DNA of 64,000 nucleotides from Raja brachyura (lineage: Eukaryota): assembly GCA_963514005.1 (NCBI GenBank), contig OY740794.1, forward strand, positions 13,826,001 through 13,890,000, in the 5' to 3' direction. Below are positions 672 through 62,010 of this stretch, piece after piece. The notes beneath the pieces are model-generated. The model saw only the letters and a list, made by a program, of their open reading frames with translations, searched no databases and was not told the DNA's origin. The position numbers and the translations under genes were made by a program. Position 1 is the stretch's first letter, and every line of letters begins with the position of its first letter.

Positions 672-923
672 TGTAGGAAGGAACTGCAGATGGTGGTTCA
701 GACATCAAATGCTGTAGTAACTAGCGAGTCAGGCAGCTTCTCTAGAGTAAAGGAATAGATGATGTCTTCGGAGAAGAAGGGTCCGACCCGAAACGTCGCC
801 TATTCCTTTTCTCCAGAGATGCTGCCTGACCCATGGAGTTACTACAGCATTTTGTATTTATCTTCGGTCTAAACCACCATCTGCAGTTCTTTCTGACACA
901 CTCCAGCATGTTATGTCCATCTT
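672..923. mobile_element. Fold-back Penelope-like terminal-repeat element with degenerate hammerhead core
   Basis: Inverted arms gtgtaggaaggaactgcagatg.../...catctgcagttctttctgacac; central gaagaagggtccgacccgaaacgtc; flanking direct repeat AGGTGGACA(G/A)TTAG at 658-671 and 924-937. Confidence 0.8.
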
Positions 924-1448
924 AGGTGGACAATTAGAACTGATACAGACAGGCTAGACTGAATGGTTTTCTTCTGTGTTTATGTTCAATGTAATTCTAT
1001 GAATATTGAACTCTACCGATTATCAACAAACTCAGCACTTGCTAACCATGTAATCATGTTTTTCTATGTAAAAACAGACTAACCATGAACTGAATTGTCA
1101 TTATTTCAAAACAAAGATTTAAATGTAAAAATTCTTAATCAAAACGTAATTGCTTTGTATATCTTGCATAAGCCTCAAAGGCTGCAATATGAATCTTACC
1201 TTATTGATTCTTCCAATGTTTGTTATTAATTACAGTGGATGGCCCGCTAATCAATAATGTACAAACCTGTGTACTTTAACAAAGAATTGAAATGGTCTTG
1301 CAACTGGTGATCAACATAATTAACAGGACTAGATTACCTTTATTTGCCTTCTCCTGTGCCCAATGTATACATTATTAATCATTAATAAGATAATGTTATT
1401 TATTAAGTTGAGCAATCTTTATATGGATTGCAACATTGATGAAAATTA

Positions 1449-1619
1449 AAGGGTGACATTTTGGCTCAAGACCTTTCTTCGGACTGAGTCTGAAGAAGCG
1501 TCTTGACCCGAAATATCACCCATTCCTTCTCTCCAGAGATGCTGCCTGTCCCATTGAGTTACTCCAGCATTTTGTGTCTATCCTCGGTTTAAACCAGCAT
1601 CTGCAGTTCCTTCCTACAC
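1449..1619 (+). mobile_element. Penelope-like terminal-repeat element with two inverted degenerate hammerhead motifs
   Basis: gggtgacattttggctcaagacctttcttcggac is inverted relative to gtctgaagaagcgtcttgacccgaaatatcaccc; 12-bp TSD TGATGAAAATTA at 1437-1448 and 1620-1631. Confidence 0.8.
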
Positions 1620-1667
1620 TGATGAAAATTATACTGACTTGACTGAGTATTGGGAACAATGTCATAC

Positions 1668-2450
1668 TGCCCAGTTAAGAATAAGAAGGCAGATTATTAT
1701 CTGAACAGGGTCAGATTAGGAAAAGGGGAGTTGAAACAAGACTTGGTTGTCCTTGTACATCGTCAATGAAAGTAAGCATGCAGGTACAGCAGGCAGTGAA
1801 GACAGCAAATGGCATGTTGGCCTTCCTAGCGAGAGGATTTGAGCAGCGGTGCAAGGAGGTCTTACTATAGTTGTACAGGACCCTGGTGAGACAACACCTG
1901 GAGTATTGTGTGCAGTTGTGGTCTCCTAATTTGTGGAAGAACATTCTTGCTATTTAGGGAGTGTAGCGTAGGTTCACCAGCTTAATACCCGGGATGGTGG
2001 GACTGACATATGAGGAAAAAACAGATCAACCGGCTTTGTATTCACTGGAATTTAGAAGGATGAGAGAGGATCTTATAGAAACATGTAAAATTCTTAAGGG
2101 ATTGGACAGGCTAGATGCAGGAAAAAAAATCCCTATGTTGGGGGAGTCCAGAACCAAGGGTCACAGTTTAAGAACGAGGGGTAGGTCATTTAGGAATGAG
2201 ATGAGGAAAAACGTTTTCACCCAGAGTTGTGAATCTGTGGAATTTTCTGCCACAGGAGGCAGTGGAGGCCAATTCACTGGATGTTTTCAAGAGATAGTTA
2301 GATATACTGTAGCTCTTAGGGCTAACGGAATCAAGGGATATGGGGTGAAAACAGGAAAGGGGTACTGATTTTGGATGATCAGCCATGATCATATTGAATG
2401 GTTGAAAGGGCCGAATGGCCTACTCCTGCACCGATTTTCTATGTTTCTAC
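1668..2450 (+). mobile_element. CR1 LINE 3' fragment (RT C-terminus and 3'UTR)
   Basis: LYRTLVRQHLEYCVQLWSP and LYSLEFRRMREDLIETCKILKGLD motifs; tail gatcagccatgatcatattgaatgg...ttctatgtttcta. Confidence 0.9.
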
Positions 2451-2741
2451 GTACGGCACACCAAAAGTAGAGCAAACCAAACTGCTTTATTGAATGGGGC
2501 CTGAAGTCACAGAAGGCACAGCATCACTAACAGTAAATGTGCTGGTTAACAGTATCTCCTCATTTGGCAGTGGGGCATTTCCACAAGTGCGTGGCTTGTC
2601 ATGCCAGTCAGAACATCAACTATTTTACTTGTAAACGCTACAGTGAATATGAATAGGGCATTCAAGGAATAATTAAAGGAGTGAAGGTACAGAGAGAAAT
2701 GTTGATATATGTTGTTTACCACAAACATTATGAGATCTAAA

Positions 2742-3650
2742 GGCGGCACTGTGGCATAGCAGTAGAGCTTAATGCCTTAAGGGCCTGTCCCACCAGCATG
2801 CAACACTATGCGATGAACGCGATCAAACTGGCAGCGGGGGCCACGCGGAGGTCGGGTGATCCCCTGTACAGGGCCATTCCCACCAGCATGCGCCAGCATG
2901 CGGCAAGCGCAACCAAACCGGCAGCAGGGGCCGCGCGGAGGTCGGGTGAGTGGCGCAACGCGGCGCAAAGTGAGGCGAACTTGGAGCGAAGTCCAAGGTA
3001 AGTTCGCCAGGACAGAGAGGGGCACACAGAGAGGGGCACCGAGGCACACACACACACAGGGCCACGAAGCCACACACATAGAGGGTCACGGAGGCACTTA
3101 CAAATAGGTTCACGGAGGCACGATGTCCGGGCGGTGTGTAAATGATGAGGCGACTGCGAGCCGACAAGCCGTTGCCGTGCGGAATTTTTGGACATAGTCG
3201 GTTTTTCGGAGCCCCACACAGTGTCGGGACGAACGCCGCACAATTCCGCACGACTCCGCCGATCGTAGTGGGACCGGCCCCGCAACGCCGGACGGCTCAA
3301 GCGACCACGTTAGGTCGCGCTAATCGCATAGAGTTGCATGCTGGTGGGACAGGCCCTTTAGAGACCTGGGTTTGATCTTGACTATAGGTGCTTGCATTTA
3401 CAGATTTTGTACATTCTCCCCGTGACCTGCATGGGTTTTCTCAGAGATCTTCAGTTTTCACCCACACTCCAAAAACGTACAGGTTTGTAGGTTAATTAGC
3501 TTTGTATAAAAGTAAAATTGTCCCTAGTGTGTGTAGACTAGTGCTGATGTGTGGGGATCGCTGGTCATTGTGTACTTCAGTGGGCTGAAGGGCCTGTTTC
3601 TCCTCTGTATCTCTGAGCTAAACTAAACAAAATTAAACGAAAGTAAACTA
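2742..3650 (+). mobile_element. HE1-type tRNA-derived V-SINE, split by a MITE at 2780-3357
   Basis: Head ggcggcactgtggcatagcagtagag resumes at 3361 with gagacctgggtttgat; V-domain-like core; CR1-like tail gggctgaagggcctgtttc and (ctaaa)n. Confidence 0.85.
2780..3357. mobile_element. Non-autonomous DNA transposon (PIF/Harbinger-like MITE), 578 bp
   Basis: TIR AGGGCCTGTCCCACCAGCATGCAAC / GTTGCATGCTGGTGGGACAGGCCCT; TTA duplicated at 2777-2779 and 3358-3360; GC-rich with internal subterminal repeats. Confidence 0.88.
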
Positions 3651-4322: not shown

Positions 4323-4397
4323 CACCATTGTGGTCAGCTATGAATTACACCACCATGGGTGACATATTTCCACCATAGATCACATATATTCTTCCGA

Positions 4398-4509
4398 TCT
4401 GAAAAGTCACCCATCCTTTTTCTCCAGAGATGCTGCCTGACCCGCCGAGTTACTCCAGCACTTTGTGTCTATCTTTGGTATAAACCAGCATCTGCAGTTC
4501 CTTCCTACC
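4398..4509 (+). mobile_element. Penelope-like terminal-repeat fragment
   Basis: gtcaccc...ctccagagatgctgcctgacccgccgagttactccagcac...catctgcagttccttccta matches other copies. Confidence 0.75.
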
Positions 4510-5122
4510 CATTTATGTTCTCACCCATGTTTTGGCAATTAGATAAACAACAGTCTTCACATGTACGGTATTTTTCGTGCCTAAAACACCAGAATTATTT
4601 TTTAAAGGGAAGAGTCCTTGGATACAGGAAAGAAATTGAGATATTGGGAAGACTAAGGAAATGTTCAGCAATTTACTGGAGGAACTCAGAGGGTCGAGTA
4701 GTATCTGTGGATGCAGTGGACTGGTGGCGTTTTGGGTCAGGGCACATCTTCATATCCAGTCCCAATGCAAAATTACGCCTGTGGTGGAGGCACATTGCAG
4801 TGAAGATGCCCGACGGTTAGCCTTTGATAACTGAGAGTAGAGTTTAGGGCAGGAACAAACATCACTAAGGGAAAGAGGATAAGAATGTAACACTAATGTA
4901 GATTTCTCCACCCCATCTACATCGAGTAAGTGGAACGTGGACCGAAAGGTGTAAACAAAATTAATTGGCGAGTGACAGTGCAAATAGTTGAAAGAGAACA
5001 TGCACCATTAATGTGCTTCACCGTGTGATGAGGAATCAGTTCTGCCAGTTCTGGATTATCTCAATGGTCTTGGCAGTGAGAACAGCATAGCAAAGAGAAT
5101 GCAGCTTCCTTGGTCAATGAGT

Positions 5123-5426
5123 GGCACGGTGGCGCATCGGTAGAGTTGCTGCCTTCAGGCGCCAGAGACCAGGGTTTGATCCTGCCCAGGGGTGCTATCT
5201 GTCGAGAGTTTGCACGTTATCCCTGTGACAGCGTGGGTTTTCCCTGGGTGCTCCGGTTTCCTCCCACACTCTAAAGACGTACAGGTTTGTAGGATAATTG
5301 GCTGAGTAAAATTGTAAATTGTCCCTAGTGTGTGTAGGAAAGTGTCAGTATGCGGGGATTGCTGGTCAGCGCAGACTCGGTGGGCTGAAGGGCCTGTTTC
5401 CTTGCTGTACCTCTACACTAAACTAG
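5123..5426 (+). mobile_element. HE1-type V-SINE, near full length
   Basis: A-box-like tggcgcatcggt, B-box-like ggtttgatcc, V-domain-like gggttttccctgggtgctccggtttcctcccaca, CR1-like tail. Confidence 0.9.
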
Positions 5427-6486: not shown

Positions 6487-7110
6487 GGATGTTGCCAGAA
6501 CTCGAGGACCTGAGCTATAGGGAGAGTTTGGGCAGGCCAGCATTTTTTACACAAAACCCAGGAGGCTGAGGTGTGATCTTATAGAGGTGCATAGAAGCAT
6601 GAGGGGAATAGATGGGGTGAATGTGCAGAATCTTTTACTGGGAATAGCGTAATCAAGAACCAGAGGGCATAGAGGTTTTAATAGGACACAAAGTGGAATG
6701 AATAGGTGACGTTTTGGGTCGGGACCCTTCTTCAGTCTGAAGATCTGAAGAAAAGTTCCTAACTGAAATTTCACCTATCAATGTTCTTCACAAATGCTGC
6801 CTGACCCGCTGAGTTACTCCAGCACTTTGTGCTTCTTCGTGTAAACCAGCATCTGCAATCCCTTGTTTCTAAGATTTAATAGGAACCTGAGGGGTGACTT
6901 TTTTAAACTCAAAGGGTGATGGGTATATGCAATGAGCTGCAGTGGAGCCAGGTAATATAACAGTGTTTAAAATACACTTGGACAGGAACATGGGTAGAAA
7001 ATATTTTGTAGAATGTGGGCACAAACAAATGGAACCAGCTTAGATGGGGCATCTAGGTTGGCATGGACAAGTTGGGCTGCAGGGCATGTTTTTGTGCTGT
7101 AACACTGTAC
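6487..7110 (+). mobile_element. CR1 LINE 3' fragment interrupted by a fold-back PLE-terminus element (~6683-6871)
   Basis: MLPELEDLSYRESLGR...RRLRCDLIEVHRSMRGID; CR1 sequence resumes at agatttaataggaacctgagggg; the insert has inverted ccttcttcag/ctgaaga motifs. Confidence 0.8.
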
Positions 7111-7617: not shown

Positions 7618-7774
7618 CACTGAAAAAAAAATCCTCTCTAAATAAAGTGAATCAGATGTTTAATGAATTGTAGTGACTAATCACTTCTAACATGTTTCAG
7701 GTTAGGGAATTTCTGCAACTGGCACGTTTGGTGGTCCCACAATCTGCACCCAAAACCAAACAAACTTTGGATTT

Positions 7775-7981
7775 GTGTACGAAGGAACTGCAGATTCGGG
7801 TTTAAACCAAAGATAGATGCAAAATGCTGGGGAGTAACTCAGTGGGACAGGCAGCATCTCTGGAGAGAAGGAATGGGTGACCTTTCGGGTCAAGTCCCTT
7901 CTCCAGACAGAAACATCACCCATTCCTTCTCTCCAGAGATGCTGCCTGTCCCAGTGAGTTACTCTCCAGCATTTTGTGTCT
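7775..7981. mobile_element. Fold-back PLE-terminus element
   Basis: Inverted arms around a degenerate ribozyme core; 12-bp TSD AACTTTGGATTT at 7763-7774 and 7982-7993. Confidence 0.82.
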
Positions 7982-8191
7982 AACTTTGGATTTATTTTCC
8001 CACAAGGTCCCACAAACTTATTTGCATTTCACTGGATATTGCATATCTACCGTGAACCAGGACAACTTAGCAATGCTGTATGATGGCATTATTTAAGGCA
8101 TCAAAGGCATTATTTAATATATTTATGATTTTGATTACTACAGCTGAAAATGGGTCCAATCATAGAAGGAAGTGTTTTCAATAGGTCACCA

Positions 8192-8306
8192 GAGATTGCG
8201 GAAGCTGGAATCTTGAGCAAGTCCTGGAGGAACTCAGCAGTCACCCAGTCCACCCATTCCACAGATGCTGCCTGACCTACTGAGTTCCTCCAGCACTTTG
8301 TGTTTT
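8192..8306. mobile_element. Short fold-back PLE-terminus remnant
   Basis: ctggaggaactcagcag ... ctactgagttcctccagcactttgtgt inverted pair. Confidence 0.6.
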
Positions 8307-8670
8307 TAATTCGATTGTCTCGCTCACTATATGCAAGGAACCTGGCTTCAAAGTGCAGAAAATATTTTAAAAACTATACAGAATCAATTACCAGTTTCCT
8401 TGTGCAAAGAATATACTTAAATATATATTTATGTACATTCAAAAGCTTTCAAAATGTTATTCTTGCACGTTATTAACAGATACTTCATTTTAAGATCTAC
8501 CTTGATAACCCACAGGGGTGCAGTGGTAGAGTTGCTGCCTTACAGCACCAGAGAACGGGGTTCGATCCTGACTGCGGGTGCTGTCTGTACGGAGTTTGTA
8601 TATTCTCCCTGTGACTCGGTGGGTTTTCTCCAGGTGCTCAGATTCCTCCCACATTCCAAAGACGAACAGG

Positions 8671-9262
8671 GGGTTACACAAAAAGCTGGAGAAACTCAGC
8701 TGGTGCAGCAGCATCTAAGGAGCGAAGGAGATAGGCGACGTTTCGGGTCGAGACCCTTCTTCAGACTGGTCAGGGATCAGGGAAACGAGAGATATAGACA
8801 GTGATGTGGAGAGATAAAGAACAATGAATGAAAGATATGCAAAATGTATCGATGATAAAGGAAACAGGCCATTGTAAGCTGTTTGTAGTGTGAAAATGAG
8901 AAGCTAGTGCGACTTGGGTGGGGGGGGGGGGAGATAGAGAGAGAAGGAATGCCAGGGCCAGAGGGCTGAGGGAGAGGTGGGAAGGGGAGGAGGCAGCCTG
9001 GGTTAACAGAATTGAGAAAATTCAATGTTTAAGCCCAGAGGATGCAGACTCCCCAAGCGGAATATGAGGTGCTGTTCCTCCAACTTGCGGTGTTGCTCAC
9101 TCTGGCCGTGGAGGAGGCCCAGGACCGAGAGGAGGTGTCCACGGATACGGAATGGGAGGGGGAGTTGAAGTGCTGAGCCACCGGGAGGTCGGGTTGGTTA
9201 TTGCGGACCGAGCGGAGGTGTTCGGCGAAACGATCGCCAAGCCTCCGCTTGGTCTCAAGCGG
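8671..9262 (-). mobile_element. 5'-truncated Penelope-like retroelement (GIY-YIG end plus 3' terminal repeat)
   Basis: Minus strand reads ETKRRLGDRFAEHLRSVRNNQPDLPVAQHFNSPSHS...RKLEEQHLIFRLGSLHPLGLNIEFS; 11-bp TSD AGACG(A/T)ACAGG at 8660-8670 and 9263-9273. Confidence 0.9.
8737..8764 (-). ncRNA. Minimal hammerhead ribozyme motif (PLE type)
   Basis: Minus strand CTGAAGA-A-GGGT CTCG ACCC-GAAA-CGTC: both catalytic boxes, stem II and a GUC cleavage triplet. Confidence 0.7.
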
Positions 9263-10787
9263 AGACGTACAGGTTTGTAAGTCAATTGTTTTTGGTAAAA
9301 ATTGGAAATAGTCCCTGGTGTGTTGGGTAGTGATAGTGTCGGGTCAGTGCAGACCCAGTTGGCCGATGTTTCCACACTGTATCTCTAAACTACAAAAAAA
9401 TGTTATGGTGAATAATCTGAATCTAGAATTTGCCTGCTTTTATGCGCAGCGACAACGTCCATCATGATTTAGGCTAGGCTAAAATATTGCAGAAACTTGA
9501 TTTGAACTAACGATACAGTGCTTACAATTGTGCAATCTTTTGCTATGCTGTGGCTTATTTTTTGCTGGGAGAACACATTCAATCGAATGGAAACCCTCCC
9601 TAGGCAGCCCAGGGCCTAAGCATGTGTTTTGTGCTTGTATGTGTGAGATCTCTGGCCTGGAAATACATTGTGCAAATATTAGCATAAGAATGCTTAAGGG
9701 ATTCATATGAAATTCCCTTGGCTGCTATTTATATAACCCACTTAGAATTAACAGATTACCATTTTCATTAGAGTATGAAACAGTGGAATTCAATACCAAC
9801 AAATTAACTATTCTTATGCTACTATTTATACATGGTAATTTCAAAGCTTCTGTTTATTAATAAACTGCTTAGAATAAAGACTCGTTGTCAGAATTAATAG
9901 GAATCATTGCAAAATTCCCACTTAAAAAAAGAGAACTAATGTCAAGACTCTCTCCATAAAGCGTGAAGCCATACTGTGCTCTATTAACATACAAATGCCT
10001 GTAGACTTTTGAATGAAATTCTTTTGTCCACTGTTTTCATGTAATGGTTAGCCTATGCAATCATCATGTAATGCAGTTTCATTGCATAACTTATATACAT
10101 TGAACGTGGTAACACATTCTACTACTTAACAAAACAAAAGGTACAAAAATGATCCATTGACACAAGAAGATTATTATCCTCATCTGGAAAAAAATACATG
10201 ATTAGGAAACTGAAGCTCAGCTTGGCAGCAATATTATTATCTACTCTCAGATTCTGCCACTGCCTCAGTGATCAATTTCAGGTCAGTTTCGGCCATCCAT
10301 CCATCAGGCCTACCATCACTCTGTACTTAACTTGATTTGCCAACAAAGCCATCAATAATTGCATTGCCGTAATAAAATAAAATCAACAGTTTAGAAAGAA
10401 AACTAATCAGAATAAGAACAAGCAGATCTCACAATGAATGGGTTGAGGGGAAAGAAATATTTTGTGTAATGCAGCTAAATTTTTTTTAAAAATTAAATCA
10501 TTCCTAAGCCCTATTTTCAATATAATCCCACCCAATGAAAAACAAATAAAGCATTCTAATAGATGAATGGTTCCTGGCTGTGGTATTCACGATAATTCAT
10601 TTCTTGCTTTTGTAATTTGGTCAGTTCTTTATACATAAACTACAAAATGTTCAGTTTATTTTGCCAGCGATATTTTTTATTATCTAATATTTTCTGCAGT
10701 TGTACTGCTGAACTTCTTCACATCTCTTTAAACGTCTGGTTTGCTGACTTTATATCATCTATTCCAACATTATCTTAATTGCAGGAA

Positions 10788-10898
10788 GGTACACAAAAAT
10801 GCTGGATAAACTCAGCGGGTGCATTTCTATGGAAATGTAGTTTCTCCAGCATTTTTGTGTACCTTCGATTTTCCAGCATCTGCAGTTCCTTCTTAAAC
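10788..10898. mobile_element. Fold-back PLE-terminus element without ribozyme core
   Basis: ggtacacaaaaatgctgga/tccagcatttttgtgtacc arms; exact 16-bp TSD ATCTTAATTGCAGGAA at 10772-10787 and 10899-10914. Confidence 0.85.
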
Positions 10899-12144
10899 AT
10901 CTTAATTGCAGGAATGAACTCTTAGAGTAAGTCACCCATTCCCATTTACCTGCTCGCCTAGTTTTGGCATCTAGCCCCCTCCTAGGTGAATCATTCCGGT
11001 TAATACAGTAAACCAGGCCTTGTCCGTGACTTGCTACGTATTTGTGGGGGTTTACGATTCTATTCATATATACATCAATATATTTTGCGTTCAGAAAGCT
11101 TCACCTTTCTTAGGTACGGTCCCTCCTCCCTTTCAAAGGCTTCACTGAAGCAATCCTGAGCAGAAGATATCCCTTTAGGATATGTTGTGAATCTATTGTT
11201 AACTCTTTCTACTGGATGAAGAGCAACGCCAAGCAAAATGACGTTACACATGGTGAAACCTAATAAACTGTGATAACCTTGTCTTTTCCATCTTTGCATG
11301 CAAGGAACAGTTATGTTTTGACAATGTTATCAACCTTTTCTGATCAATTCTGCTCTCCACCCATCTCAGCTTGCAAAACTGCAATGCTAACTCTGTTTCT
11401 TTCACCACAGATGCTGCCTGACCTGATGAGTATGTTCATGTTTTTCTGCTTTGCCTACGGGTTTCTAGATCTGCATTATCTTGCTTCATTATCATCTCCT
11501 ACATCTATTTCCTTTTCTACATCCTTGTCTACTTGCCCAAGGAAATGACGATTGGAATTTTAATCCACCTGCGACATCAAAGGGAAGGGTGAAGTCATGA
11601 ATGTTGATTTCTCTGACATTGTCCATCTTGCCTTATTCCACGGGAGAGACCCGTCTCAATTATATCCACCTTTATTTATCAAATGCACACAAACTGCCTC
11701 TACCAATAATTTCACTTGTCAGCTTGGTACATCCACATCTTTTGCAGTTCCCCTCTTCTATCCAATCATCCCCACTGCCATCATGCTATTAAACACCACA
11801 ATATCTAAATAAGTTCTGAACTACATAGACTTGGGGGCAATATTTTTGTCTTTTTGCACTGTTATTGTTTGTTTTATGTGTATGCCTGTATATATGTGTG
11901 TATACAATATAATAATTTTTTTTAAATCTATATATATTTATTTTTAGAACTTTGTATATTGTTTATAGGATACCATCTTCCATTTTCCATTGTGCTGCAA
12001 GTAAGGATTTTATCATTCTGTCTATGACATATGACAATGAAACACTTTTGACTATTAATGTTCAGCCCTTTGGTGACAGCATTGCATGATAGATTTGTTT
12101 CAATATGAGCTCTGCATATATTTTTGTGTACAGGTACAGTACAG

Positions 12145-25095: not shown

Positions 25096-25339
25096 TGAAT
25101 TTGTGTATATGGGCAAAAGGGTTAGTATGGAAGTGGTGGGTCGAAGGGACAATATTTGTGTCATGCAACTTCATCACTCTACTTGAATTTCAATTTCCCA
25201 CCTGCTATGGCAGGATTCAAATTCTTATCTGGATTAGCGGTCCAAACATTGAAACCATTTAAAAACATCTAGTACCTTTGAATGTGCCATTGGCCTTTAG
25301 TCCTAACCTAGTTCCAATCCCATTCGGTTTCTCAGTGTG

Positions 25340-25525
25340 CCAGGGAGCATCTGAGGAGGTTATGGATAGGCCACGTTTCGGGTCAGGACCCTTCTTCAGG
25401 GTGATCAGTCTGAAGAAGCCCCCCGTGCCAAAACATCACCTATCCATTCCTTCCACGGATGCTGCCCGGCCCATTGAGTATTCCAGCACATTTGCTCCAG
25501 ACTCCAGCATCTGTAGTTCCCTGTG
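25340..25525. mobile_element. Fold-back PLE-terminus element with inverted degenerate hammerheads
   Basis: cgtttcgggtcaggacccttcttcag followed by tcagtctgaagaag...aaacatcacctatcc. Confidence 0.72.
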
Positions 25526-35344: not shown

Positions 35345-36325
35345 GGAACCAGGATAGAGTTCTCCTGGTCCTCACCTTTCACCCCACCAGCCTCCACATC
35401 TGATACATCATCTCCTGACATTTCCATCACTTCCACCATGATCCCACCACCAGTCACATCTTCCCAACTTCACTCCTTACCACCTTTTTTAAGAGACCCC
35501 CTCCCTCTGCGACTACTTGGTTCACTCATCCCTTCCCACCAAAACCAGCCCCTCCCCAAGTACTTAGCCCTGCTAGCAGAAGAGATGTAACACCTGTACC
35601 TACACCACCTCCCCCACATCCATCCAGGTAGACCAGCAGTCACTCTCGGTAAGACAGGGGGTTCACGCGACCTCTTCTAACCTCATCCACTGCATCCGGT
35701 GTTCCAGATGTAGACACCTATACATCAACGAGACTAAACCTAGACTCGGTGACCATTTTGCTGAACACCTATGCTTGGTCTGCCAAAGTCTGTTGTTTCT
35801 CCTTGTTGCTAACCATTTGAACACTTCTTCCCATTTCCATACCGACCTTTTGTCCTGGGCCTCCTCCATTGCCAGATTGAGGCCACACGCAATCTGGAGG
35901 AACAGCACTTCATATTCCACATGGGTAGTTTGAAATCCAACATTATTGATTGCAGGTAACTACAAATCTACCTCATTTTTTCTCCACCCCCACTTTCTCC
36001 CCATGTCTCTCCCCTGTGCCCCACCTGGACTTGCATTTAATTCATTTCCCCCTTCCCTTCCATCTACATTCATTGCTCGAGCTTCACAATCTACAACTTG
36101 TCTCACTTACCTTCTGTCTTTTCATCTCTGACCCTTGTCCAATCATCTGCCTGTCAAACCACCCCCCTCCCCCTTCACCAGTATCCACCTATTACCTGCT
36201 AGGCTTTGCCCTGTCCCATCTTTCTTCCGTCTTTCTCCCCTTCCACCTTACATTCAGTCAAAAGCTGGGTCCGCACCCGAAACGTCACCTATCCATGTTC
36301 TCTGGAGATGCTGCCTGATCCACTG
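35345..36325 (+). mobile_element. Degenerate Penelope-like element (GIY-YIG region plus 3' repeat)
   Basis: TSSNLIHCIRCSRCRHLYINETKPRLGDHFAEHL...NHLN...RNLEEQHFIFHMGSL; ends ccgaaacgtcacctatccatgttctctggagatgctgcc. Confidence 0.85.
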
Positions 36326-39300
36326 TTGTGTCTGTTTTTGAGTATTATATTCTGTAAAGCTATCTTTACTGAACTAACTCTGGTGTATATCAACTTCATT
36401 TGGCTGTGAGAAGGACATTAGTGCTGGCAAGCAACGGTGAAACATTCAACAATTGCAACTCAATATTTCCCAAGGTGGAATTCAGTTTATACATTAACGA
36501 TTAACACAAATCTATTAGCCATTCTTTTGACAATGTAAAATGGGGTTTGGCCATGTACCTCAGGAAATAGGCCTTGATCTGACAAGTAGAAATGGGGAGA
36601 TGAGAAACTTTATTTTCCTCCTACTAGGTGGCCATCTGCAATTATTTTGCCGTGACTGCGATATTTCTTTGGCTAAGCGATCTGTTGGGCACTTTTTAAA
36701 CTTACCTCTCAAGGTTAGCCACCAACGTAGCTGAGCTCACTACATACATAAGACTCCATATGGGTGGCCATCCTACAGCTCGGAATTGGCAGTATAATTC
36801 AAGTCAGTTAACTGCACATTGTAAGTCTAGGTAAGATTACAATTATCTGCCCATATGTATTATTGCAAATGTGCAGCATTTGGTGTGGGTGTTAAATATT
36901 GGCCAGTGTAATGTGGCACGAGGAAATAAAAGGGTATTTGATGTTAACTTCACACATCTTGATTTAGTTGAATTTTGGTTTATTTTAAGTTTAGTTTAAC
37001 TTGCTTCGTGTGGCAAGTTTTTGAAAGTGCAAACTGGCTGTGGCACAATGACGAAAATTGCCTCCGAGACACAAGAGAAGAGCACAAGAGACTGGATTGT
37101 GAAATTAATAGCACAAGGACTGAGGAGGAAGTATAAATTAGGCTGTCTGAATCAAGTGCAGAAAGACAATTAAAGGGAGTTTAACAAAGATTAGATTGGC
37201 AAAAGAGAGACAATACAGGGAGAAAAAAACGATTTTGAGTGTAAAGTAAATTTAGGTTCTTAACATCTCCCGTTATAAGTAAAACCAAAGGAATAGTATG
37301 CAACAGTTGTAATAACAAATTTTAGGCACTGTTCTTTGGCAACAATTAACACCCAGCACATTGTTAAAAGGTGACATAAATGGAAATGGACACAACTTAA
37401 CTTTCTGTGTTGTTTTGTTCATTTCTGCTCGGGAAACACTGAAACGTCACACCATTCAATCGCTAATACAGAAGGGAGTGGAGAGTGAGGGACACAAGTT
37501 TCATGAATGGGTGGATGGTGAAATGGAACATCGAGAAGAGCAACTTTTGAATAGTTCTGATTAACTGTGCATTTGCTCCTGTTGTAAGGTTGTTGGAAAC
37601 ATTTGCTGACAAATGGCAAGCTTCACTATCATCAAACAAGGGAGTTTGACTTATTGTCTCATCTATGTAGCAAATGTAGTTTGCAATTTGATGCAAATGC
37701 AATTTGAACCTCGTATATAAAAACAGAGAATACAAGATCCTATTTAACCCTTGTATAATATTACTTTAGCACATTCCCAAGCGCAAGACTTTGCAGAAAC
37801 AAACATGAAAGCGTTAGAATGAAAATCTAGAACTATAGAATATAAGTACCTATAAACATAGCAAAATGGCAAACACACAAAGAAGCTCCATGTACAGAGT
37901 AACAATATAGTGCTGTCATAACCATTGAATATTATTGAGCCTTGAAAAGGTTAATAAAACATGCAATTTTATCAAAACACCCAGTCCTGGGATGTCTTCA
38001 TAATCATATATAAATATGATAAAAACACTATGTTCTACTTGTATATCCTACTGAATTTGCTGAGGCAGGTTAGAGTTTCAAGGTAAGATATCAAACCATC
38101 TTTATTCAACCTAGTTCTGTGTGTGACACCCCCCCCCCCCCCTTCCTTCAATATGGTCAACACATAATTTCAGAGGCAATTGGGGATTGGCAATAAATGC
38201 TGACATTTCCAGTGACGTCTATATTTTGTGAACAAATTGAAAAATATTTTTAAAAGCATGCAGTATTCCTTGGAACTTCACTCAACTGGCTGTCTTTGCT
38301 GTGAGTGCTGAGTATGTGAGTGTCAGCAGGATATTTCTATGCTTCATCATCAAAGTTCCTATGCCCTCGTGGTCCCTTGATAGTCAGGTATATGCATTTG
38401 GCAGTAGGACCCCTGGCTGATTTCTGCCTCCCGAGCCCAGAGGAGCTCACGAGTCTACTTCTGCCACAGAGAGACCTACAATTAGAGCACTTATCAAAAC
38501 ATGGTGCTTTCTTTTATTCCGTTTATCAGTTGTAGTGGAGGCAAGGGTGGTGATAAGGGGAATGGCGATCTCCTAGTGAACAGTGGTGATCAGATGGCTC
38601 CCACAGCCCTGAATCAGAAGTGGTATTTGAAATATCGGAATTGCCTCACTGCATGTCATAGCAAAGCTATATTCACTGGAGTCCTGTTACAGCTTCTAAT
38701 CAACTAAGACACATGCATGTTTATTGCCTGCAACAGAGCTTTATTATTCTTTCACAAATAATCGTTATATTTGAATAAAGTGTTTGTATAATTTGAAACT
38801 GCATAACTGTTCTGTTTTTTTAAATTTATGTTATTCAGCAGAACACTTTTCTATGCTCACCCTGTATAATCTCCCTTAATCTATTGTCAATTATGTTAAA
38901 GATATTTTAAACGAAAATTGCATGACAAATTCCGATAGCTGTGGGAAATGAAATTCAACGAGGAATGCTACTGACCCAACGTTCTAATGTTCTCTCTCCT
39001 CTTCAAGGATACTAAATAACTACAGGTAGATATTTACAAGAACAGAACCCCCTGTGGAACTGCTCCCTGATTAGTTAGGTTGCAACAGTGGTAGTTTGCA
39101 ATGGCAGTACAAGCATTAATCTTTCTTCAATAACAATTGAAAACACAACTTCAAAACAAAAGATCCAAAACAATGAGCTTTTGACTTTTACAGCTGGACT
39201 GGAAGCCAGTAAATGCCTTTGTGTCCGTGCCACTGTTTGTCTCCCGATCCAAAACTAAATTTACTGTCCTATTTAATTGCCTTGGATCATGGCAATGCCA

Positions 39301-46435: not shown

Positions 46436-46448
46436 ACGATTCAACGGA

Positions 46449-46545
46449 GTCTGTAGAAGGATTTCGGCCCGAAACGTTGCCTATTTCCTTCGCTCCATAG
46501 ATGCTGCCGCACCCGCTGAGTTTCTCCAGCACTTTTGTCTACCTA
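46449..46545 (+). mobile_element. PLE-terminus fragment with variant hammerhead core
   Basis: gtctgtagaaggatttcggcccgaaacgttgcctatttccttcgctccatagatgctgc. Confidence 0.7.
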
Positions 46546-47979: not shown

Positions 47980-48180
47980 AACACGGAACTGCAGATGCTA
48001 GTTTACAAAAAAATACAAAGCAGTGGAATAACTCTGAAGAAGGGTCTCGACCCGAAACGTCGCCTATCTCCTTCACTCCTTAGATGCTGCTGCACCCGCT
48101 GAGTTTCTCCAGCTTTTTGTGTAACCCTCGAATAACTCTGTGGGTCAGGTAGCATCCCAGGAGAACACAGATAGATGCAG
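47980..48180. mobile_element. Young PLE-terminus insert (48037-48129, +) nested in an older opposite-strand copy
   Basis: 11-bp TSD GAATAACTCTG at 48026-48036 and 48130-48140. Confidence 0.82.
48034..48061 (+). ncRNA. Minimal hammerhead ribozyme motif
   Basis: CTGAAGAAGGGTCTCGACCCGAAACGTC. Confidence 0.7.
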
Positions 48181-48831
48181 TTACCATCAAAACTTGTCAC
48201 ATATTTGTCAATTAAAGTAAAATAACAGGATAATATACAATTAGATTCATACTTAGGAAATACTTTGCTTGCATGCTTGGTGATTAAATTAAATATATAT
48301 TACACAGTTATATTACACATGAAAGATCTCGCAAGAGCAAAATACAAAGTGATAATGAGAGATATGAGCAGAGCAGTTAAAATATTTTTATCAAAAAGTT
48401 CAATTTAGATTTAGTTGAAATTCGTCAGTAAATATCACAGGACAAAATATTTGTGCTCAGATGGAATACTTTAGTAATGATTGCACTCCTCTCATTCGTC
48501 AATGCAATGAAGCACTGATTTTTCCAAAAATCTATTGGCGCTTGGTTATAATGAGTGACTTGCAAAAATGGTCAGTTCTATTATTGGATTTGTAACACAG
48601 AGAGTTATTACAGAAAGTTATTAAAAAGTAGCAGATTATTTATTTCCTGCATTTAACCATTGAACTAAAGAGCAACACAAAGCAGTTCACGTTATATATT
48701 GCATCAAAGTGTGCATTAACTCTGGTTAAGTTGGTGCTGAACATGAAAGGAAATCCATTAATGGAGCAAAACTGAGAAAATGTTAAAACCCTTTTTGCAC
48801 ATGTTTGGTTCACAAGGCCAACGCAAGATAA

Positions 48832-49355
48832 GGATAGACACAAAATGGTGGAGTAACTTAGCAGGACAGGTAGCATCTTTGGATAGAAGGAATGGTTGAT
48901 GTTTTGGGCTGAGACCCTTCTTCAGACTGAGCATCAGGATGAGAGGGTGTTACAGAGATAAGGAAGTGTAAGAGATCAAAAGAGATGGAGATCAAGGAAA
49001 AAGTAGACCATTGTTAGCTAAGAGAAGGTGACAACAAAGCAAACAGAGGTACAATGAGAACATGGATAGGTTACGTTTCAGGTTGGAACCTTTCTTCAGG
49101 CTCAACAACTGTTTCTGATAGTTTAGAAGGGAAAATAATAGCTGGAGGAAGATTGAAGTCTGAAGCGCCCCTGAAGCAGGCAACACCTTGTAGTAGAGTG
49201 GAATTGAAGCCACAGCCTAATTCAAGGTGTTAAAGAAGGGACTGCAGATGCTGGAGAATCGAGGGTACACAAAAAGCTGGAGAAACTCAGCGGGTGCAGC
49301 AGCATCTAAGGAGCGAAGGAGATAGGCGACGTTTCGGGTCGAGACCCTTCTTCAG
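48832..49355 (-). mobile_element. Tandem PLE 3' terminal-repeat fragments
   Basis: Three minus-strand copies at ~48832-49050, ~49055-49100 and 49227-49355; the last has an intact core. Confidence 0.78.
49328..49355 (-). ncRNA. Minimal hammerhead ribozyme motif, sense to MECOM
   Basis: Reverse complement of CTGAAGAAGGGTCTCGACCCGAAACGTC. Confidence 0.68.
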
Positions 49356-51297: not shown

Positions 51298-52018
51298 ATA
51301 TACACTCACTTCTAACACCTACGCAGTTGCAAATGGCAGAGGAATGTTAATCCTAATTTAAATACTTATCGTTTGCACTTGTGATGACAGTTCAGATCAT
51401 TAATTTGAAATGCCAACTGCGTTTCCTTCACTAGGTGCTACTTGACCGACTGATTATTTCCAGTATCTTCGGGCTTAATTTCTAGGGAAATAAATATCAA
51501 ATGTCAAGAAAGATAGTGTTGCAAAGTTTTACACAAAAGCAAATTTTGCAAGGATTTCGTTGGAGTATAGATCTGTAAACTGGTGAAGAAATCAAATGAT
51601 ATCATGTTACAACAGTCAGTAAAGTGAACAAGCAATGCTCTCCACTTTTCCAGATTATTCAACCACATAATCCTGAGATAGTGGAAACTGGAATTGTGTT
51701 TGGATTCTTCTCTGCATTTTTTTTGTTTCAAGTTGAGCTGGATTGATGGGACAAAAGTCTTCTCCCTTTTGTTATTCAGGTATGTTAAGAGCATAAAGCC
51801 TAGTGAAACTTCAACCCGGGTCTGCTGCTAGGTTGGCATATTTTGACTCTAAATTGCAATTTATTTACATAATATAAGGAAGATTATCAAGCAAACATCA
51901 GATTTAACCGATTCAGTGCCACTCTGGAGTATACCCGGGTTTTGGCAAATAGTGAAAAAAAAACTTGGTAGTGAACAGGTTAATGAGGCTTGGGTTAAAT
52001 GTTTTGGGGATTGCTTTA

Positions 52019-54050: not shown

Positions 54051-54189
54051 TCATTCCATCAATGAAACTTAGTGAAAGTAATGACAAGATAATAGATTTA
54101 AAGAACCCTACTCCTTCGCTGAAACCATGTGGGCAGAAAGGCAGATTTTCTATGAACAAATTACTGAGCAGACAGAAAATAAACTGCCA

Positions 54190-54409
54190 AAATGGAACAG
54201 GACAGGCAGCGTCTCTGGATAGAACGGGTGACATTTCGGGTCGAGACCCTTCAAGAACCGATATCTGCAGTTCCTTCCTACACATTTCAGAAGAAGGGTC
54301 TCGACCTGAAACATCACCCATTCTCTCCAGTCCTGCCTGTCCCGCTGAGTTACTCCAGTATGTTGTCTATCTTCGGTGTAAACCAGCATCTGCAGTTCCT
54401 TCCTACACA
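54190..54409. mobile_element. Fold-back PLE-terminus element
   Basis: gggtgacatttcgggtcgagaccctt followed by agaagaagggtctcgacctgaaacatcaccc...cttcctacac. Confidence 0.8.
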
Positions 54410-54957: not shown

Positions 54958-55312
54958 AGCCCCTGTCCCACTGTACGAGGTAATACAAGAGTTCTCCCGG
55001 GTTTTCCCCTGATTCGAACTCGGAGAATATCCGTAGTCGGTCCGTAGGAGTTCGTGGATTTCTCGTCGCGGCTCATACGAGTAAAAAGTAACAATTTATT
55101 TCATCACAAGTATTTTTTTACTCGTGGACATTTTTTGCAGGGATGGAAAAACGTCACGAGTTTACCGAATGTCCTGAGTACCTACCGTTAGCATTACGAG
55201 CTGCTACGAGACATCCACAGGCTCCTACGGACCCACTACGGACATTGTCCGAGTTTGGATCAGGGGGAAACTCGGAAGAAATCTTGAATTACCTCGTACA
55301 GTGGGACAGGGG
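54958..55312. mobile_element. PIF/Harbinger-like MITE, ~355 bp
   Basis: TAA|AGCCCCTGTCCCACTGTACGAGGTAAT ... ATTACCTCGTACAGTGGGACAGGGG; the last 2 bp and the right TSD are missing. Confidence 0.82.
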
Positions 55313-55520: not shown

Positions 55521-56436
55521 AGACACAAAGTATAGGAGTAACTCAGTGGGTCAGGCAGGATATCTGGAGAACTGGGATAGTTGATGTTTTGTGTCGGGAC
55601 CTTTCTTGGTATTGATTGTAGTAGTGGGGGAAAGCTGGAACTGATGTGGGGCAGGACAAAACCTGGCGAGGTGGATGGGCAACGGCTAGAGATGTGGCCA
55701 GTAGTGGGATCTCCAATGGGATCGCATCACTGGCCACATCTACACATCTCCATCCCTTTCTGCTTTCCACAGAGAATGCTCCCTCCATAACTCACTGGTC
55801 AATTCATCCCTTCCCACCCAAACCACCCCCTCCCTGGGTACTTTCCCCTGCAACCACAGGAAATGCAACACTTGTCCCTATACCTCCCCCCTCAACGCCA
55901 TCAAGGACCCAAGCATTCTTTCCAGGTGAGGCAGAGGTTCACCTGCACCTCCTCCAACCTTATCTATTGCATCCGCTGTTCTAAGTGTCAACTGCTCTAC
56001 ATTGGTGAGACCAAGCGCAGGCTCGGTGATCGCTTCGCTGAACACCTCTGATCAGTCCGTGTTAACCAACTTGATCGCCCGGTTGCTCAGCACTTCAACT
56101 CCCCCTCCCATTCCCAATCTGACCTTTCTGTCGTGGGCCTCCCCTATTGTGAGAGTGAGGCCCATCGCAAATTGGAGGAACAGCACCTCATATTTTGCTT
56201 GGGTTAGTTTACACCCCAGCGGTAGGAACATTGACTTCTCTAATTTTAGATAGCCCTTGCATCTCCCTCCTACCCCTCCCCCTTCCCAATTCTCCCACAA
56301 GTCTTACTGTCTCCGCCTACTTCCTTTCTTTTTCCCGTCCCCCCCCCCCGATGTCAGTCTGAAGAAGGGAATCGACCCGAAACGTCGCCTATTCCTTCTC
56401 TCCATAGATGCTGCCTCACCCGCTGAGTTCCTCCAA
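55521..56436 (+). mobile_element. Penelope-like element remnant: inverted 5' terminal repeat, GIY-YIG endonuclease pseudo-ORF, 3' repeat with hammerhead motif (56359-56386)
   Basis: KHSFQVRQRFTCTSSNLIYCIRCSKCQLLYIGETKRRLGDRFAEHL*SVR..PVAQHFNSPSHS..RKLEEQHLIF; internal stop at 56049-56051; minus-oriented repeat at 55521-55610. Confidence 0.9.
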
Positions 56437-57152: not shown

Positions 57153-57280
57153 ACAGGCAACAATGTGGAAATCATTAATACACCTTTCTTGGGTACCCAT
57201 ATGCCTAGCCAAACACGTTTATGGATAGACATATGGACATCCAAGAAAGGTGTATTAACAATTTCCATATTGTTGCCTGT
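57153..57280. repeat. 128-bp imperfect inverted repeat
   Basis: ACAGGCAACAATGTGGAAATCATTAATACACCTTTCTTGG... is mirrored by ...CCAAGAAAGGTGTATTAACAATTTCCATATTGTTGCCTGT. Confidence 0.9.
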
Positions 57281-57544
57281 GATCTGCACATACCCTATAT
57301 CCCTCCATCCACATGCCAATCCAAACATGTTTATGGATATGCAGAGAATGGAGGTTATGTGCAGATAGATAAGTGATGGTCTTAGCCTCTTGCTCGGTAC
57401 AGATATTGTGGGCCGAAGGGCCTGTTCTTGTGTGATACTCTTCTACGTTCTATGATCTTTCCACAAAATACATTGACAATCCTTACTGATTTTGTCATTC
57501 TTTTCCGTGGAGTTTAAATGTTGGGCTGTGATTCACAAAGACAT

Positions 57545-58899: not shown

Positions 58900-58936
<37 letters not shown>

Positions 58937-59975: not shown

Positions 59976-60427
59976 ATAAAGTTTGTCTCAATATTAATTT
60001 GAGTTTGGTTGAGTCCTGGAACAGATGCCAGCAGCGGATGGAACCAGTGTCCCTGGCACCATGTTTGTGCAGTTGGCCGAGGACAACAGCTTTTGTCATC
60101 CTAACATCTAAATGGAGGGCATTGGTTTTCATCAAATACTGGACATTAGGGCAGCAGTGTGATTATTCGGAGACCATGGGGAAAATGCTGGCGAGATAGA
60201 ATTTAGCACTGAGAGTGTATGTGTTGATGCGACATTGTATAGATGGGAAAAATCAGATGTAAGAAAAGACTGAGTTGGTTCAGAGGCACAAAGGTCTAAA
60301 TTGACCTGCCATCATGATTCCTGATGAGACCGTTCAGATTTCAGAGACAGAGTCAAGTGGAAGCTGAGGTGGGGATTTCACCTTGCTCAAGACCATACCA
60401 TTATCCTTTCTCCTTTCATCAACCTTT

Positions 60428-60548
60428 CTGAAGAAGGACCCAAAACGTCACCCTTTCCTTCCCTCCAGAGATGCTGCTGTCCCGCTGAATTACTCCAGCA
60501 TTTTGTGTCTATCTTCAATGTAAACCAGCATCTGCAGTTCCTTCCTAC
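60428..60548 (+). mobile_element. PLE-terminus fragment with shortened hammerhead stem II
   Basis: ctgaagaaggacccaaaacgtcaccc...catctgcagttccttcctac. Confidence 0.75.
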
Positions 60549-61134
60549 TCATCCTTTTTCTTTCCTTCTTTCTATCCTAACTTTTAGCCCTATGAACATT
60601 CACTGGAATGCTGAAGTACACACACAAGAGGAAGGATTTCAAGTTCCTCTGCTTCTGAAAATACCAAGCGAGTTTTGAATGAAAGTCAGTGATAGTGTTG
60701 CCCCTCATTTTCCACCTTGTTGCTATTTGTTCGATACAATTCCTTGGCCTAGAATCGCTGCCCTTAAAAGGCAACTGGAAAAAAAGGGGCTATTTAGGAA
60801 CTAGATTGGTCCGCAAAAATAATGAAAACGACATCAACACATGTGTGTACTGGCCTTTAGTCCATACACTACACCTCCCATTATATCTCCCAGGTGGTTA
60901 TTCTGCACACACTGCTAGCTGTGTTTGTAAATAGCGTGAAGCATACTTATTGGCTCTTGTACATGCCATGTACAATACTGGAAGCAGCATAGGTTACACT
61001 TTTCTTTTATGTCCCCGGTGTTGAAGCTGTTATCTTAGCTCAGCATCCTATGCCATTCATTACAGTATTGGTACAGGATAAGGAAAAGCTCGCTTCTGAC
61101 CTTCCATTGGTAATCATTACCCTGCAGAGAAATA

Positions 61135-61310
61135 CCATAAGACCATAAGACATACAAGCAGAACTTGGCCATTCGGCCCATCGAGTCTGGTCCACCATTC
61201 GATAGTGACTGATCTATTTTTTCCCTCAACCCTATCCTCCTACCTTCTACCAGTAAATGTGGACACCTTTACTAGTCAAGAACATACCAATCTCCACTTT
61301 AAAAATACCA
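61135..61310 (-). mobile_element. CR1 LINE 3' tail
   Basis: (accataag)2 followed by ggccattcggcccatcgagtctggtccaccattc. Confidence 0.75.
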
Positions 61311-61771
61311 ACTCCATAGAAGAGAGGTGCTAGGGCCAAATGGACACTGTTGACTTCAGCTAGATGAGTGCACACAACAATGTCTTGTGCTACAATCATT
61401 TCATCTGAAGCTCTTCTTTAGGCGCTTGTTATTATTCAGATAGCAATTATTGATTGGACATGGCAAGGCCAAGGGGGATGTTCAAAAACGATGTAAATGA
61501 TAATAGCGGAATTATTAGTAACAACTCATGTCTGAAAGCTAAAAGAGGTAATGGTCTGAAATTGTTGATCTCATTGTTTGACCCCAAACTGCTAGACATG
61601 GACAAGTGCTGAACCTTAAGCCTTGTCAGGAGGCAGAGGACAGGGAGGCCAGAGTGATATTGGGGTGGAGAGCTGGAAAGGCAAAGGAATCTTAAGGCTA
61701 CATTTGCAGACTAAATGGCAAAGTTCTGCAAAATGTAATTAAAGTGCATGGAACTGAATTTATGAAGAGGA

Positions 61772-62010
61772 GTGTGTACGAGGGAACTGCAGAGGCTGGT
61801 TTACAGTGAAGAAAGACATAAAATGCTGGAGTAACTCAGCAGGATAGGCAGCATCTCTGGAGAAGAGGAATGGGTGACGTTTCAGTTCGAGGCTCTTCTT
61901 CAGAGGCGTACCATGCACAGCACTGCATGACACAAAAAGCTGGAGTAACTCAGCGGGACAGGCAGTATCTCTGGATAGAAGGAAGGGGTGACGTTTTGGG
62001 TCCTTCAGAA
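61772..62010 (-). mobile_element. Two tandem PLE-terminus fragments
   Basis: gtgtgtacgagggaactgcag...gggtgacgtttcagttcgaggctcttcttcag and gacacaaaaagctggagtaactcagcggg...gggtgacgttttgggtccttcag. Confidence 0.78.

Follow-up and report, generated by a model that had tools for sequence, protein, structure and literature searches.

The short repeat scattered through this stretch of skate DNA is best explained, at a probability of roughly 80%, as a set of very short, probably dead-on-arrival insertions from several subfamilies of an elasmobranch EN+ Penelope-like element (PLE) of the Neptune/Nematis type. Its hammerhead motif would be a passenger of the copied region that did not make the insertion ends. 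The element itself is unremarkable. PLE termini that are truncated and inverted and carry minimal hammerheads have already been described, so PLE is the proper annotation for such copies, rather than MITE or a new ribozyme family.

Census and identity of the repeat

The window comprised 64,000 nt of Raja brachyura (contig OY740794.1) and was searched in full with a repeat profile trained on 17 window copies (threshold E<0.01). The search found 37 segments, and none when the window was reversed or shuffled. Merging gave 25 loci totalling 3,233 bp, or 5.1% of the window; this coverage and copy density describe this one window and do not extrapolate to a share of the genome. The unit and its motifs were present as the initial annotation had claimed, and the repeat is real, but its estimate of about 20 copies was too low.

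Copies were numbered from the hammerhead cut site (C17 = 0) in a hand-curated end table. Fifteen of the 37 segments ended 3' at +60..67 (site 1) and 16 at +98..103 (site 2), so that 31 of 37 ends fall on two sites some 38-40 nt apart. Past site 2, mean identity across 15 copies fell from 0.79 to 0.29. The two sites would correspond to the known PLE tail and RT-start signature.

On sequence evidence, the unit is a terminal repeat made up of pLTR and tail; it belongs to an elasmobranch GIY-YIG PLE with a Neptune/Nematis zinc-finger linker. Two GIY-YIG PLE remnants reported earlier, at 8671-9262 and 55521-56436, were both confirmed with the unit at their end. A third, absent from the earlier list, was found at about 35347-36344, and all three PLE bodies in the window end in the repeat unit:

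8671..9262, minus strand: 5'-truncated PLE body with GIY-YIG fragment and pyrimidine-rich UTR, ending at site 1
35347..36344, plus strand: third PLE remnant, with C-terminal ORF part, UTR and decayed hammerhead
55711..56436, plus strand: PLE body with CX4CxxC linker, GIY-YIG endonuclease with stop codons, UTR and hammerhead
55521..55672, minus strand: inverted terminal repeat of another subfamily, adjoining the 55711..56436 body

The adjoining inverted repeat may be a separate insertion. The 8671..9262 body carries an intact minimal hammerhead at 8737-8764, and the 55711..56436 body a minimal hammerhead at 56359-56386. The former has the same kind of target-site duplication (TSD) as the short copies (11 bp, one mismatch) and lies in a SINE-like repeat; removal of the insert and one TSD restored a repeat matching nine other window copies. 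Fragment 55911-56213 passes the Pfam GIY-YIG cut-off (24 bits against 22.6), and the CX4CxxC linker was found in the 55.85 kb reading frame; in passages of PMC8557442, a CX2-5CxxC zinc-finger linker before the endonuclease is diagnostic of the Neptune/Nematis clades. The best named matches of the endonuclease fragment were skate, ray and shark proteins (63-82% identity). An 889-aa relative bears RT and GIY-YIG, and of the relatives with RVT_1 and GIY-YIG one lies above the RT cut-off and one below. The PLE bodies here are truncated, the window contains no RT core, and only three of the 25 loci reach the ORF. The largest subfamily in the window has UTR-bearing copies and no ORF-bearing one.

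Several copies in the window are old and have internal deletions. Those outside bodies and doublets were as follows:

4394..4509, plus strand: single copy without the 5' half of its hammerhead, ending at tail site 2
4669..4753, minus strand: decayed single copy (profile search)
8239..8308, plus strand: decayed copy of a diverged subfamily (profile search)
11401..11488, plus strand: decayed copy without hammerhead (profile search)
17090..17242, minus strand: copy preceded by about 60 nt of UTR, minimal hammerhead intact at 17153-17180
20456..20572, minus strand: copy with about 25 nt of UTR and a mutated core
46446..46545, plus strand: single copy starting AGTCTG and ending at site 1
47985..48182, minus strand: older copy split by the nested insertion 48026..48140
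48026..48140, plus strand: young single copy with 11-bp TSD, core intact, helix I cut off
48836..49101, minus strand: partial tandem of two UTR-bearing or decayed copies
49228..49355, minus strand: young single copy with tail, core intact, helix I cut off
51407..51475, plus strand: doubtful weak copy, E 5.6e-4 (profile search)
60390..60548, plus strand: copy deleted in helix II, its upstream sequence of about 40 nt in common with the 61930-62050 copy
61775..62050, minus strand: head-to-tail pair of 61930-62050 (helix II deleted, site 1) and 61775-61904 (site 2) with a 25-nt spacer

The short copies at 48034 and 49355 (48026..48140 and 49228..49355) are 98% identical to the 8671-9262 terminus. 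In a low-resolution tree of 89 columns, with only two of 21 branches starred, the short label needs at least three changes on starred branches, and short copies formed a single group in 0% of bootstrap trees. No clade of their own, as proposed for a separate family, was seen; short copies interleave with ORF-bearing ones, and this window tree recovered no independent non-autonomous PLE lineage apart from them. The earlier alternative, that these are 5' truncation-inversion products of PLE, gains support from the interleaving, the PLE-type 3' ends and the single-template arms of the doublets described below.

Insertion ends, target-site duplications and doublets

A direct-repeat score of at least 10 was obtained at seven of 25 loci, compared with five of 598 random position pairs; at 18 of the 25 no strong TSD was found. 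TSDs were 10-16 bp long and 69% AT (58% in the window). All six TSDs previously claimed were recovered in place and at the same lengths, five exactly and that at 658/924 with one mismatch. Short head-to-head doublets account for eight of the 25 loci, and six of these eight are flanked by TSDs (no strand assigned):

658..937: doublet of arms 673-770 (minus) and 773-901 (plus) followed by a further 22 nt of the unit at 902-923, TSD 658-671/924-937
1437..1631: doublet of a short arm 1449-1487 (minus) and a full arm 1487-1619 (plus), TSD 12 bp
6677..6884: doublet joined at a TCAG-T-CTGA palindrome, 10-bp TSD 6677-6686/6875-6884
7763..7993: doublet of 7775-7908 (minus) to site 2 and 7910-7981 (plus) to site 1, TSD 12 bp
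10772..10914: doublet of tail-region arms without hammerhead sequence, outer ends at site 1 and site 2, TSD 16 bp
12283..12478: doublet without the 5' half of the core, one outer end at site 2 and the other at site 1, TSD 14 bp
25331..25524: old doublet, TSD not detected
54170..54409: doublet with an additional tail fragment (54256-54284) where the arms meet, TSD not detected

The doublets had been described as long hairpins, and the two that were folded bore this out (z = -17.5 for 7775-7981; z = -13.2 for 672-923). Arms are unequal and junctions vary between loci. The six doublets with TSDs have 12 outer ends, of which 11 coincide with site 1 or site 2; four of these six doublets have one end at each site. 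Variants private within the window were common to both arms in three of the eight doublets, namely two variants at 658..937, a 2-nt insertion at 7763..7993 and a 5-nt deletion at 54170..54409. Thus, both arms derive from one template.

The 5' ends were also clustered. Fifteen of 37 fell at -33..-22, the start of the hammerhead core (P<=0.0002 in every null tried), adjoining a conserved YAG|T. Counted per locus, the pile-up held 11 of 25 (median P 0.003, 90th percentile 0.023). The remaining 5' ends are scattered from +75 to -850: 10 of 37 segments continue past the cut site by 50 to 850 nt on its upstream side, and another 12 begin downstream of -22. Breakpoints are thus not random. The pile-up is unexplained and counts against plain truncation, which predicts random 5' ends. 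The initial annotation had set random breakpoints, as truncation products, against fixed ones, as an independent family. This either/or test is too simple, since strong clustering at both ends goes together with interleaving among ORF-bearing copies.

Routes to short insertions

We propose that insertion begins with a staggered cut of 10-16 nt in moderately AT-rich DNA, recorded in the TSDs and presumably made by the GIY-YIG endonuclease. Copying would then start within the element RNA at about +63 or +101, positions at which copies end and to which a starting role is assigned from the Anolis element. Synthesis of cDNA then mostly halts within 30-130 nt, most commonly near -28, as the 5' ends of the copies show. 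In the eight of 25 loci that carry a second copy of the same template joined head-to-head, synthesis of a second cDNA most likely begins on the other cut strand, from the start site not used by the first, with microhomology joining the two; fold-back of the cDNA is the alternative for this step.

Fold-back self-priming, which competes only with this last step, is a candidate at clearly less than even odds. The 3' end of the first cDNA would anneal to itself, for example at the -28 TCAG-T-CTGA palindrome, and self-copy, the second outer end being set by template switch or endonuclease resolution. The private variants shared by doublet arms and the 6686 junction centred on the palindrome are consistent with it, asymmetric junctions with 1-3 nt of microhomology fit it as well as they fit annealing, and passages of PMC3846280 propose self-priming for palindromic PLE junctions. 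However, it leaves unexplained why second-arm ends lie on site 1 or site 2 in five of six TSD-flanked doublets, given that site 1 also ends TSD-bearing single copies (8671, 48037), and why single copies also stop at -28.

Tentatively, with perhaps one chance in a few, the -28 pile-up marks a real end or junction of the element's RNA: either transcription begins at TCAGT or, as in D. virilis Penelope, a pLTR intron has its 3' splice site there. If so, RT from an internal tail site near the mRNA 5' end would yield a fixed 90- or 130-nt product resembling retroviral strong-stop DNA, which would normally jump to the pLTR at the RNA 3' end. Short copies would be failed jumps, doublets would arise when a dimeric enzyme primes one such product from each cut strand, and elasmobranch genomes would hold a large fossil record of PLE-cycle intermediates.

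It is unlikely that some of the copies descend from short non-autonomous sources, namely SINE-like pLTR derivatives whose transcription starts at about -30 and which PLE protein mobilises in trans, a route that needs no ribozyme cleavage. In its favour, both ends of copies cluster, and TCAGT just upstream of the core approximates an initiator consensus. The 60428 and 62011 copies, which have a common helix II deletion and unusual upstream sequence but different tail sites, could reflect such a source copy. Non-autonomous PLE derivatives exist in Chlamydomonas, according to passages of PMC8557442. Nevertheless, short copies interleave with ORF-bearing ones, their 5' ends form a continuum, and the two deletion copies lie 1.4 kb apart, where local duplication is possible. 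The Anolis template, moreover, requires the first 172 nt of ORF past the RT start, which the short inserts lack.

The motif bears on a further proposal, that of a retrozyme-like family whose RNA is excised by dimeric hammerheads, circularised and reinserted. The family sequence has CUGANGA, an unpaired base before helix II, G10.1-C11.1 and a palindromic CG at helix III, features of a minimal type-I hammerhead in passages of PMC4209133. "Hammerhead-bearing" is true of the family sequence, but most copies fail: a minimal-hammerhead descriptor was passed by six of 37 segments (0.42 expected from shuffles) and by none of the eight short doublets. An Rfam search gave no hammerhead match at E<=1. 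In helix II, 81% of cells are paired; covariation is weak, with nine of 500 shuffles as high. The hammerhead at 17153-17180 has a helix II of 4 bp and a helix I of 2 bp; the two short copies whose core is intact have a helix I of 1 bp, truncation having removed its 5' strand.

Excision by dimeric hammerheads is therefore very improbable, even with a proper type-I motif and a preprint reporting such families as pLTR-derived and present in one chondrichthyan genome (bioRxiv 10.64898/2026.07.22.740005). Of 17 tandem-repeat rows in the window, not one is this unit, and two intact motifs never occur together in a head-to-tail pair. None of 37 3' ends lies within 2 nt of the cut site and none of 37 5' ends at -1..+3. 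Flanks beyond the tail are unrelated, with no common permuted junction, and a transcript through a folded doublet would pair most of the unit with the antisense arm. Together with the interleaving and the absence of an own clade, these findings largely refute a separate ribozyme-processed family for this window.

MITE-type DNA transposons, or long insertions eroded by deletion, are scarcely credible: palindromic doublets and old copies with internal deletions would suit them, but variable 10-16 bp TSDs directly flank both ends, so these inserts were this size on arrival, arms are unequal with junctions that differ by locus, and the sequence is the terminus of GIY-YIG bodies. Where a TSD flanks the locus this reading is rejected; among the 18 loci lacking one, some may have been eroded.

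For the question of how PLE pLTRs, tails and inverted copies arise (PMC11167929 and passages of PMC8557442), the value of the short insertions lies in their TSD-bounded form, outer ends on both putative RT start sites, single-template arms and 5' hotspot; their recurrent end points are a usable clue to PLE copying. Genome-wide counts could separate two-strand priming from fold-back and test for an RNA end immediately preceding the hammerhead. Small RNAs might also arise from the hairpin doublets.

Comparison with known elements

Non-LTR retrozymes, as described in parts of PMC7229834 and bioRxiv 10.64898/2026.07.22.740005, are likewise non-coding and pLTR-related with a type-I motif. They form head-to-tail arrays with a complete ribozyme per unit and circular RNA, whereas the skate copies occur singly or head-to-head, most of them without a complete motif. 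Assignment to this class was rejected, there being no arrays, no complete motif per unit, and no bounding by cut sites or circle permutation. LTR retrozymes, defined by a type III hammerhead in LTRs and a 4-bp TSD, are ruled out by the type-I topology and the 10-16 bp TSDs.

Metazoan PLE hammerheads (PMC4209133, in part) agree with the skate motif in their core, in the unpaired base before helix II, in G10.1-C11.1, in a palindromic 15.2-16.2 and in having no loop 3. Most are scattered single copies of truncated PLEs, and motif pairs occur on opposite strands 100-700 bp apart. The skate motif differs in its 4-bp helix II and a helix I of only 2 bp; the latter matches the D. virilis variant, in which an intron runs up to the 5' edge of helix I. 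Cartilaginous fish are not named for PLE hammerheads in those passages.

Neptune/Nematis EN+ PLEs, in the relevant passages of PMC8557442 and PMC3846280, share the C-terminal GIY-YIG, CX2-5CxxC linker, terminal-repeat hammerhead, optional and often one-sided 30-40 bp tail, head-to-head inverted 5'-truncated copy, TSDs and nesting into another copy. By comparison, most skate insertions are only 90-250 bp, TSDs are 10-16 bp rather than the 8-10 bp of rotifer PLE examples, and 5' ends pile up at a single place, a feature not described in those passages.

Poseidon_Ac (PAc) of Anolis carolinensis (PMC11167929) belongs to another clade, Poseidon; its ORF starts within the hammerhead, whereas the skate ORF start was not located, and the biochemistry comes from PAc. 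In PAc, two RT start sites bound a 30-40 bp tail, both target strands are cleaved and extended, and hammerhead mutants still insert. The skate copies are alike in having two fixed 3' ends past the hammerhead that bound a tail, AT-leaning targets, and ends unrelated to the ribozyme cut site.

The repeat unit and its genomic setting

The repeat unit was identified as the 3' terminus of three Penelope-like element (PLE) remnants in the window, hereafter bodies. The following features were examined:

8671-9262: PLE body ending in the unit
~35347-36344: third PLE body ending in the unit
55711-56436: PLE body ending in the unit
55911-56213: endonuclease fragment
14765-14899, minus strand: exon, coding intact

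Five open frames initially gave no GIY-YIG match in Pfam; the read-through fragment at 55.9 kb, when scanned, passed the Pfam GIY-YIG cut-off. This fragment is preceded by a CX4CxxC motif, diagnostic of the Neptune and Nematis clades (PMC8557442). Relatives of the fragment carry reverse transcriptase (RT) and GIY-YIG domains in one protein. An RT core was not found in the window, and a search for full-length relatives recovered only distant proteins, most of them unnamed (≤56% identity). We put at roughly 0.8 the probability that the short fold-back repeats are truncated, inverted short insertions of a Neptune/Nematis-type PLE.

The best named matches of the endonuclease fragment were from Leucoraja, Mobula, Rhincodon and Heptranchias (63-82% identity), identifying the window as elasmobranch DNA. 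The exon matched the MECOM PR domain (E 1.9e-20) and was one residue shorter than the matched stretch of the solved chain; its presence places the repeats inside or beside MECOM. Possible promoters or first exons are the GC-rich regions at about 17.4-19 kb and 26-29 kb.

A profile made from 17 window copies detected 37 segments of the unit in the window, with no match once the window was reversed or shuffled. These segments merged into 25 loci, occupying 5.1% of the window. All six target site duplications (TSDs) of 11-16 bp reported in the initial annotation were correct, and a direct-repeat score of at least 10 was obtained at 7 of 25 loci compared with 5 of 598 random pairs. An eighth TSD, around the 8671-9262 body, scored 8 and was confirmed: without the insert, the flanks rejoin into a SINE-like repeat that has nine other matching copies. 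Direct-repeat scoring at the ends of the remaining loci revealed no convincing TSD. The copy at 48026-48140 is young and nested in an older opposite-strand copy of the unit, with a TSD overlapping the first bases of the insert. A literature search of mainly open-access papers found no published description of the elasmobranch repeat or of the 5' end hotspot described below; a repeat this abundant has probably already been catalogued.

Other repeats were also observed. A near-perfect 136-nt palindrome at 57150-57285 (z -15), unrelated to the PLE unit, is probably a MITE-like fold-back; Rfam miRNA matches at this site fall below gathering score. One short terminal inverted repeat bounds the elements at 2781-3356, 42448-42701 and 52020-52656, which lie beside TAA/TTA and have unrelated interiors, and by eye an identical repeat bounds a fourth at ~54960-55310; all four resemble PIF/Harbinger-type MITEs. 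Many SINE-like copies and LINE-like RT fragments (e.g., 5125-5420, 46030-46330 and 12850-13750) presumably belong to the shark and ray pair known as HE1/HER1 or to a CR1-type pair.

Hammerhead features of the unit

The family sequence displayed the features of a minimal type-I hammerhead as listed in PMC4209133. Across 18 aligned copies, helix II was paired in 81% of cells and covariation was weak. Helix I comprised 2 bp (pair one in 17/17 copies, pair two in 9/17); a longer helix was ruled out by the third (1/16) and fourth (3/12) pairs. A strict descriptor yielded six matches compared with 0.42 expected by chance. Bodies accounted for two of them, copies that were UTR-bearing or decayed for two more, and young short copies in which truncation leaves a 1-bp helix I for the last two. 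None fell in the short doublets, loci in which two arms are joined head-to-head. An Rfam scan of the window detected no hammerhead at E≤1, and four Rfam matches were rejected as hairpin look-alikes, each below its gathering score. The hammerhead was the minimum-energy fold of none of six monomers, and a search for the core in bacterial and archaeal genomes returned 0 loci. RNAalifold analysis of 10 arms recovered a single 8-bp stem, located in the tail region; it shows no compensatory change and so is not evidence of selection.

Two further structures were noted. In the copy at 49228-49358 (-), a predicted 10-bp pairing between the hammerhead core and the tail end closes the whole unit (z -2.9); only 5-6 bp of such pairing are possible in other subfamilies. 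The pairing might inactivate the ribozyme or present the RT start. Three copies belonging to one subfamily (17180, 20548 and 48925, all minus strand) carry a small hairpin, CTGA-NNN-TYAG, immediately before the core, with a constant stem and a variable loop.

Termini of the copies

Ends were taken from a hand-curated table and counted from the predicted hammerhead cut site. The 5' ends clustered near the start of the core (-27), with 15 of 37 at -33 to -22, ten farther upstream and twelve downstream. This hotspot was significant under all nulls tried (P≤0.0002), and also when each locus contributed a single segment (median P 0.003, 90th percentile 0.023). One candidate explanation is a splice junction before the core. 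Six UTR-bearing copies from three subfamilies have, directly before the core, a tract rich in pyrimidines that ends in YAG|T; four others lack it. Comparably, Drosophila virilis has an intron whose 3' boundary coincides with the 5' edge of a 2-bp helix I (PMC4209133) and which starts 46 nt past the transcription start (PMC2377424). A search for a short exon shared upstream of the -28 ends was negative: the 25 nt preceding four single copies matched nothing convincing elsewhere in the window. Anchored extension of short copies into UTR-bearing copies remained at or near shuffle level, except for the copy at 25408 (14 vs 7). The other candidates are an initiator at TCAGT, which resembles the initiator consensus, and the TCAG-T-CTGA palindrome. 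A bolder and less likely reading takes the short copies as intermediates that were left stranded and would mark where the element's RNA begins at its 5' end.

The 3' ends fell mostly at two sites, with 15 of 37 at +60 to +67 (site 1), 16 at +98 to +103 (site 2) and six elsewhere. Twenty-one ends did not reach site 2, and 15 of these lay inside one 8-nt window (null mean 4.9). Since the profile model also stops at site 2, the sharpness of this site was checked separately; beyond it, identity among 15 copies drops from 0.79 to 0.29. The stretch between sites 1 and 2 is the PLE tail; in an Anolis element, the tail spans the interval that separates two internal sites of RT initiation (PMC11167929). 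By eye, the TSD at 12465-12478 resembles the element's own continuation past site 1 (7/9 bases), and the copies at 6686 and 10785 show 2-3 nt overlaps. Some target-template pairing may contribute to priming, in contrast to the in vitro report.

Origin of the short copies and doublets

The initial annotation had proposed a separate, retrozyme-like family, with truncation and inversion as the alternative. The short copies formed a single group in 0% of bootstraps of a 24-row tree, and its starred branches required at least three changes of the short label. The tree was weak overall (89 columns; 2/21 branches starred; 13 of 37 segments omitted as too short or partial). Two short copies (48034 and 49355) were 98% identical to the terminus of the 8671-9262 body. 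These findings argue against a separate family, and truncation-inversion is the best reading. The copies at 60428 and 62011 count against this reading: both have a deletion in helix II, and they share an unusual upstream sequence of ~40 nt. A non-autonomous source copy or a local duplication could account for this resemblance. Retrozymes are a very improbable identity: non-LTR retrozymes are defined (PMC7229834; preprint 10.64898/2026.07.22.740005) by tandem units with complete ribozymes, whereas the window held no tandem array of the unit and none of the 37 3' ends lay within 2 nt of the cut site. The chondrichthyan retrozyme families of that preprint may be related to the unit.

Short head-to-head doublets made up eight of the 25 loci, and two that were folded gave z scores of -17.5 and -13.2. 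In the six TSD-flanked doublets, 11 of 12 outer ends lay on sites 1 or 2, and site 1 was paired with site 2 in four. Three of the eight carried variants confined to their own two arms, implying one template for both arms or later homogenisation. Doublet junctions fit two-strand priming and cDNA fold-back alike; two-strand priming is favoured because site 1 also ends single copies. Additional short fragments of the unit at 902-923 and 54256-54284, which lie at an outer end or a junction, resemble abortive starts followed by re-initiation.

In the Anolis element, cleavage and extension involve both strands of the target, and insertion persists in hammerhead mutants (PMC11167929). An inverted copy lying alongside and a tail present on one side only are features already described for PLEs (PMC8557442, PMC3846280 and PMC8969392).
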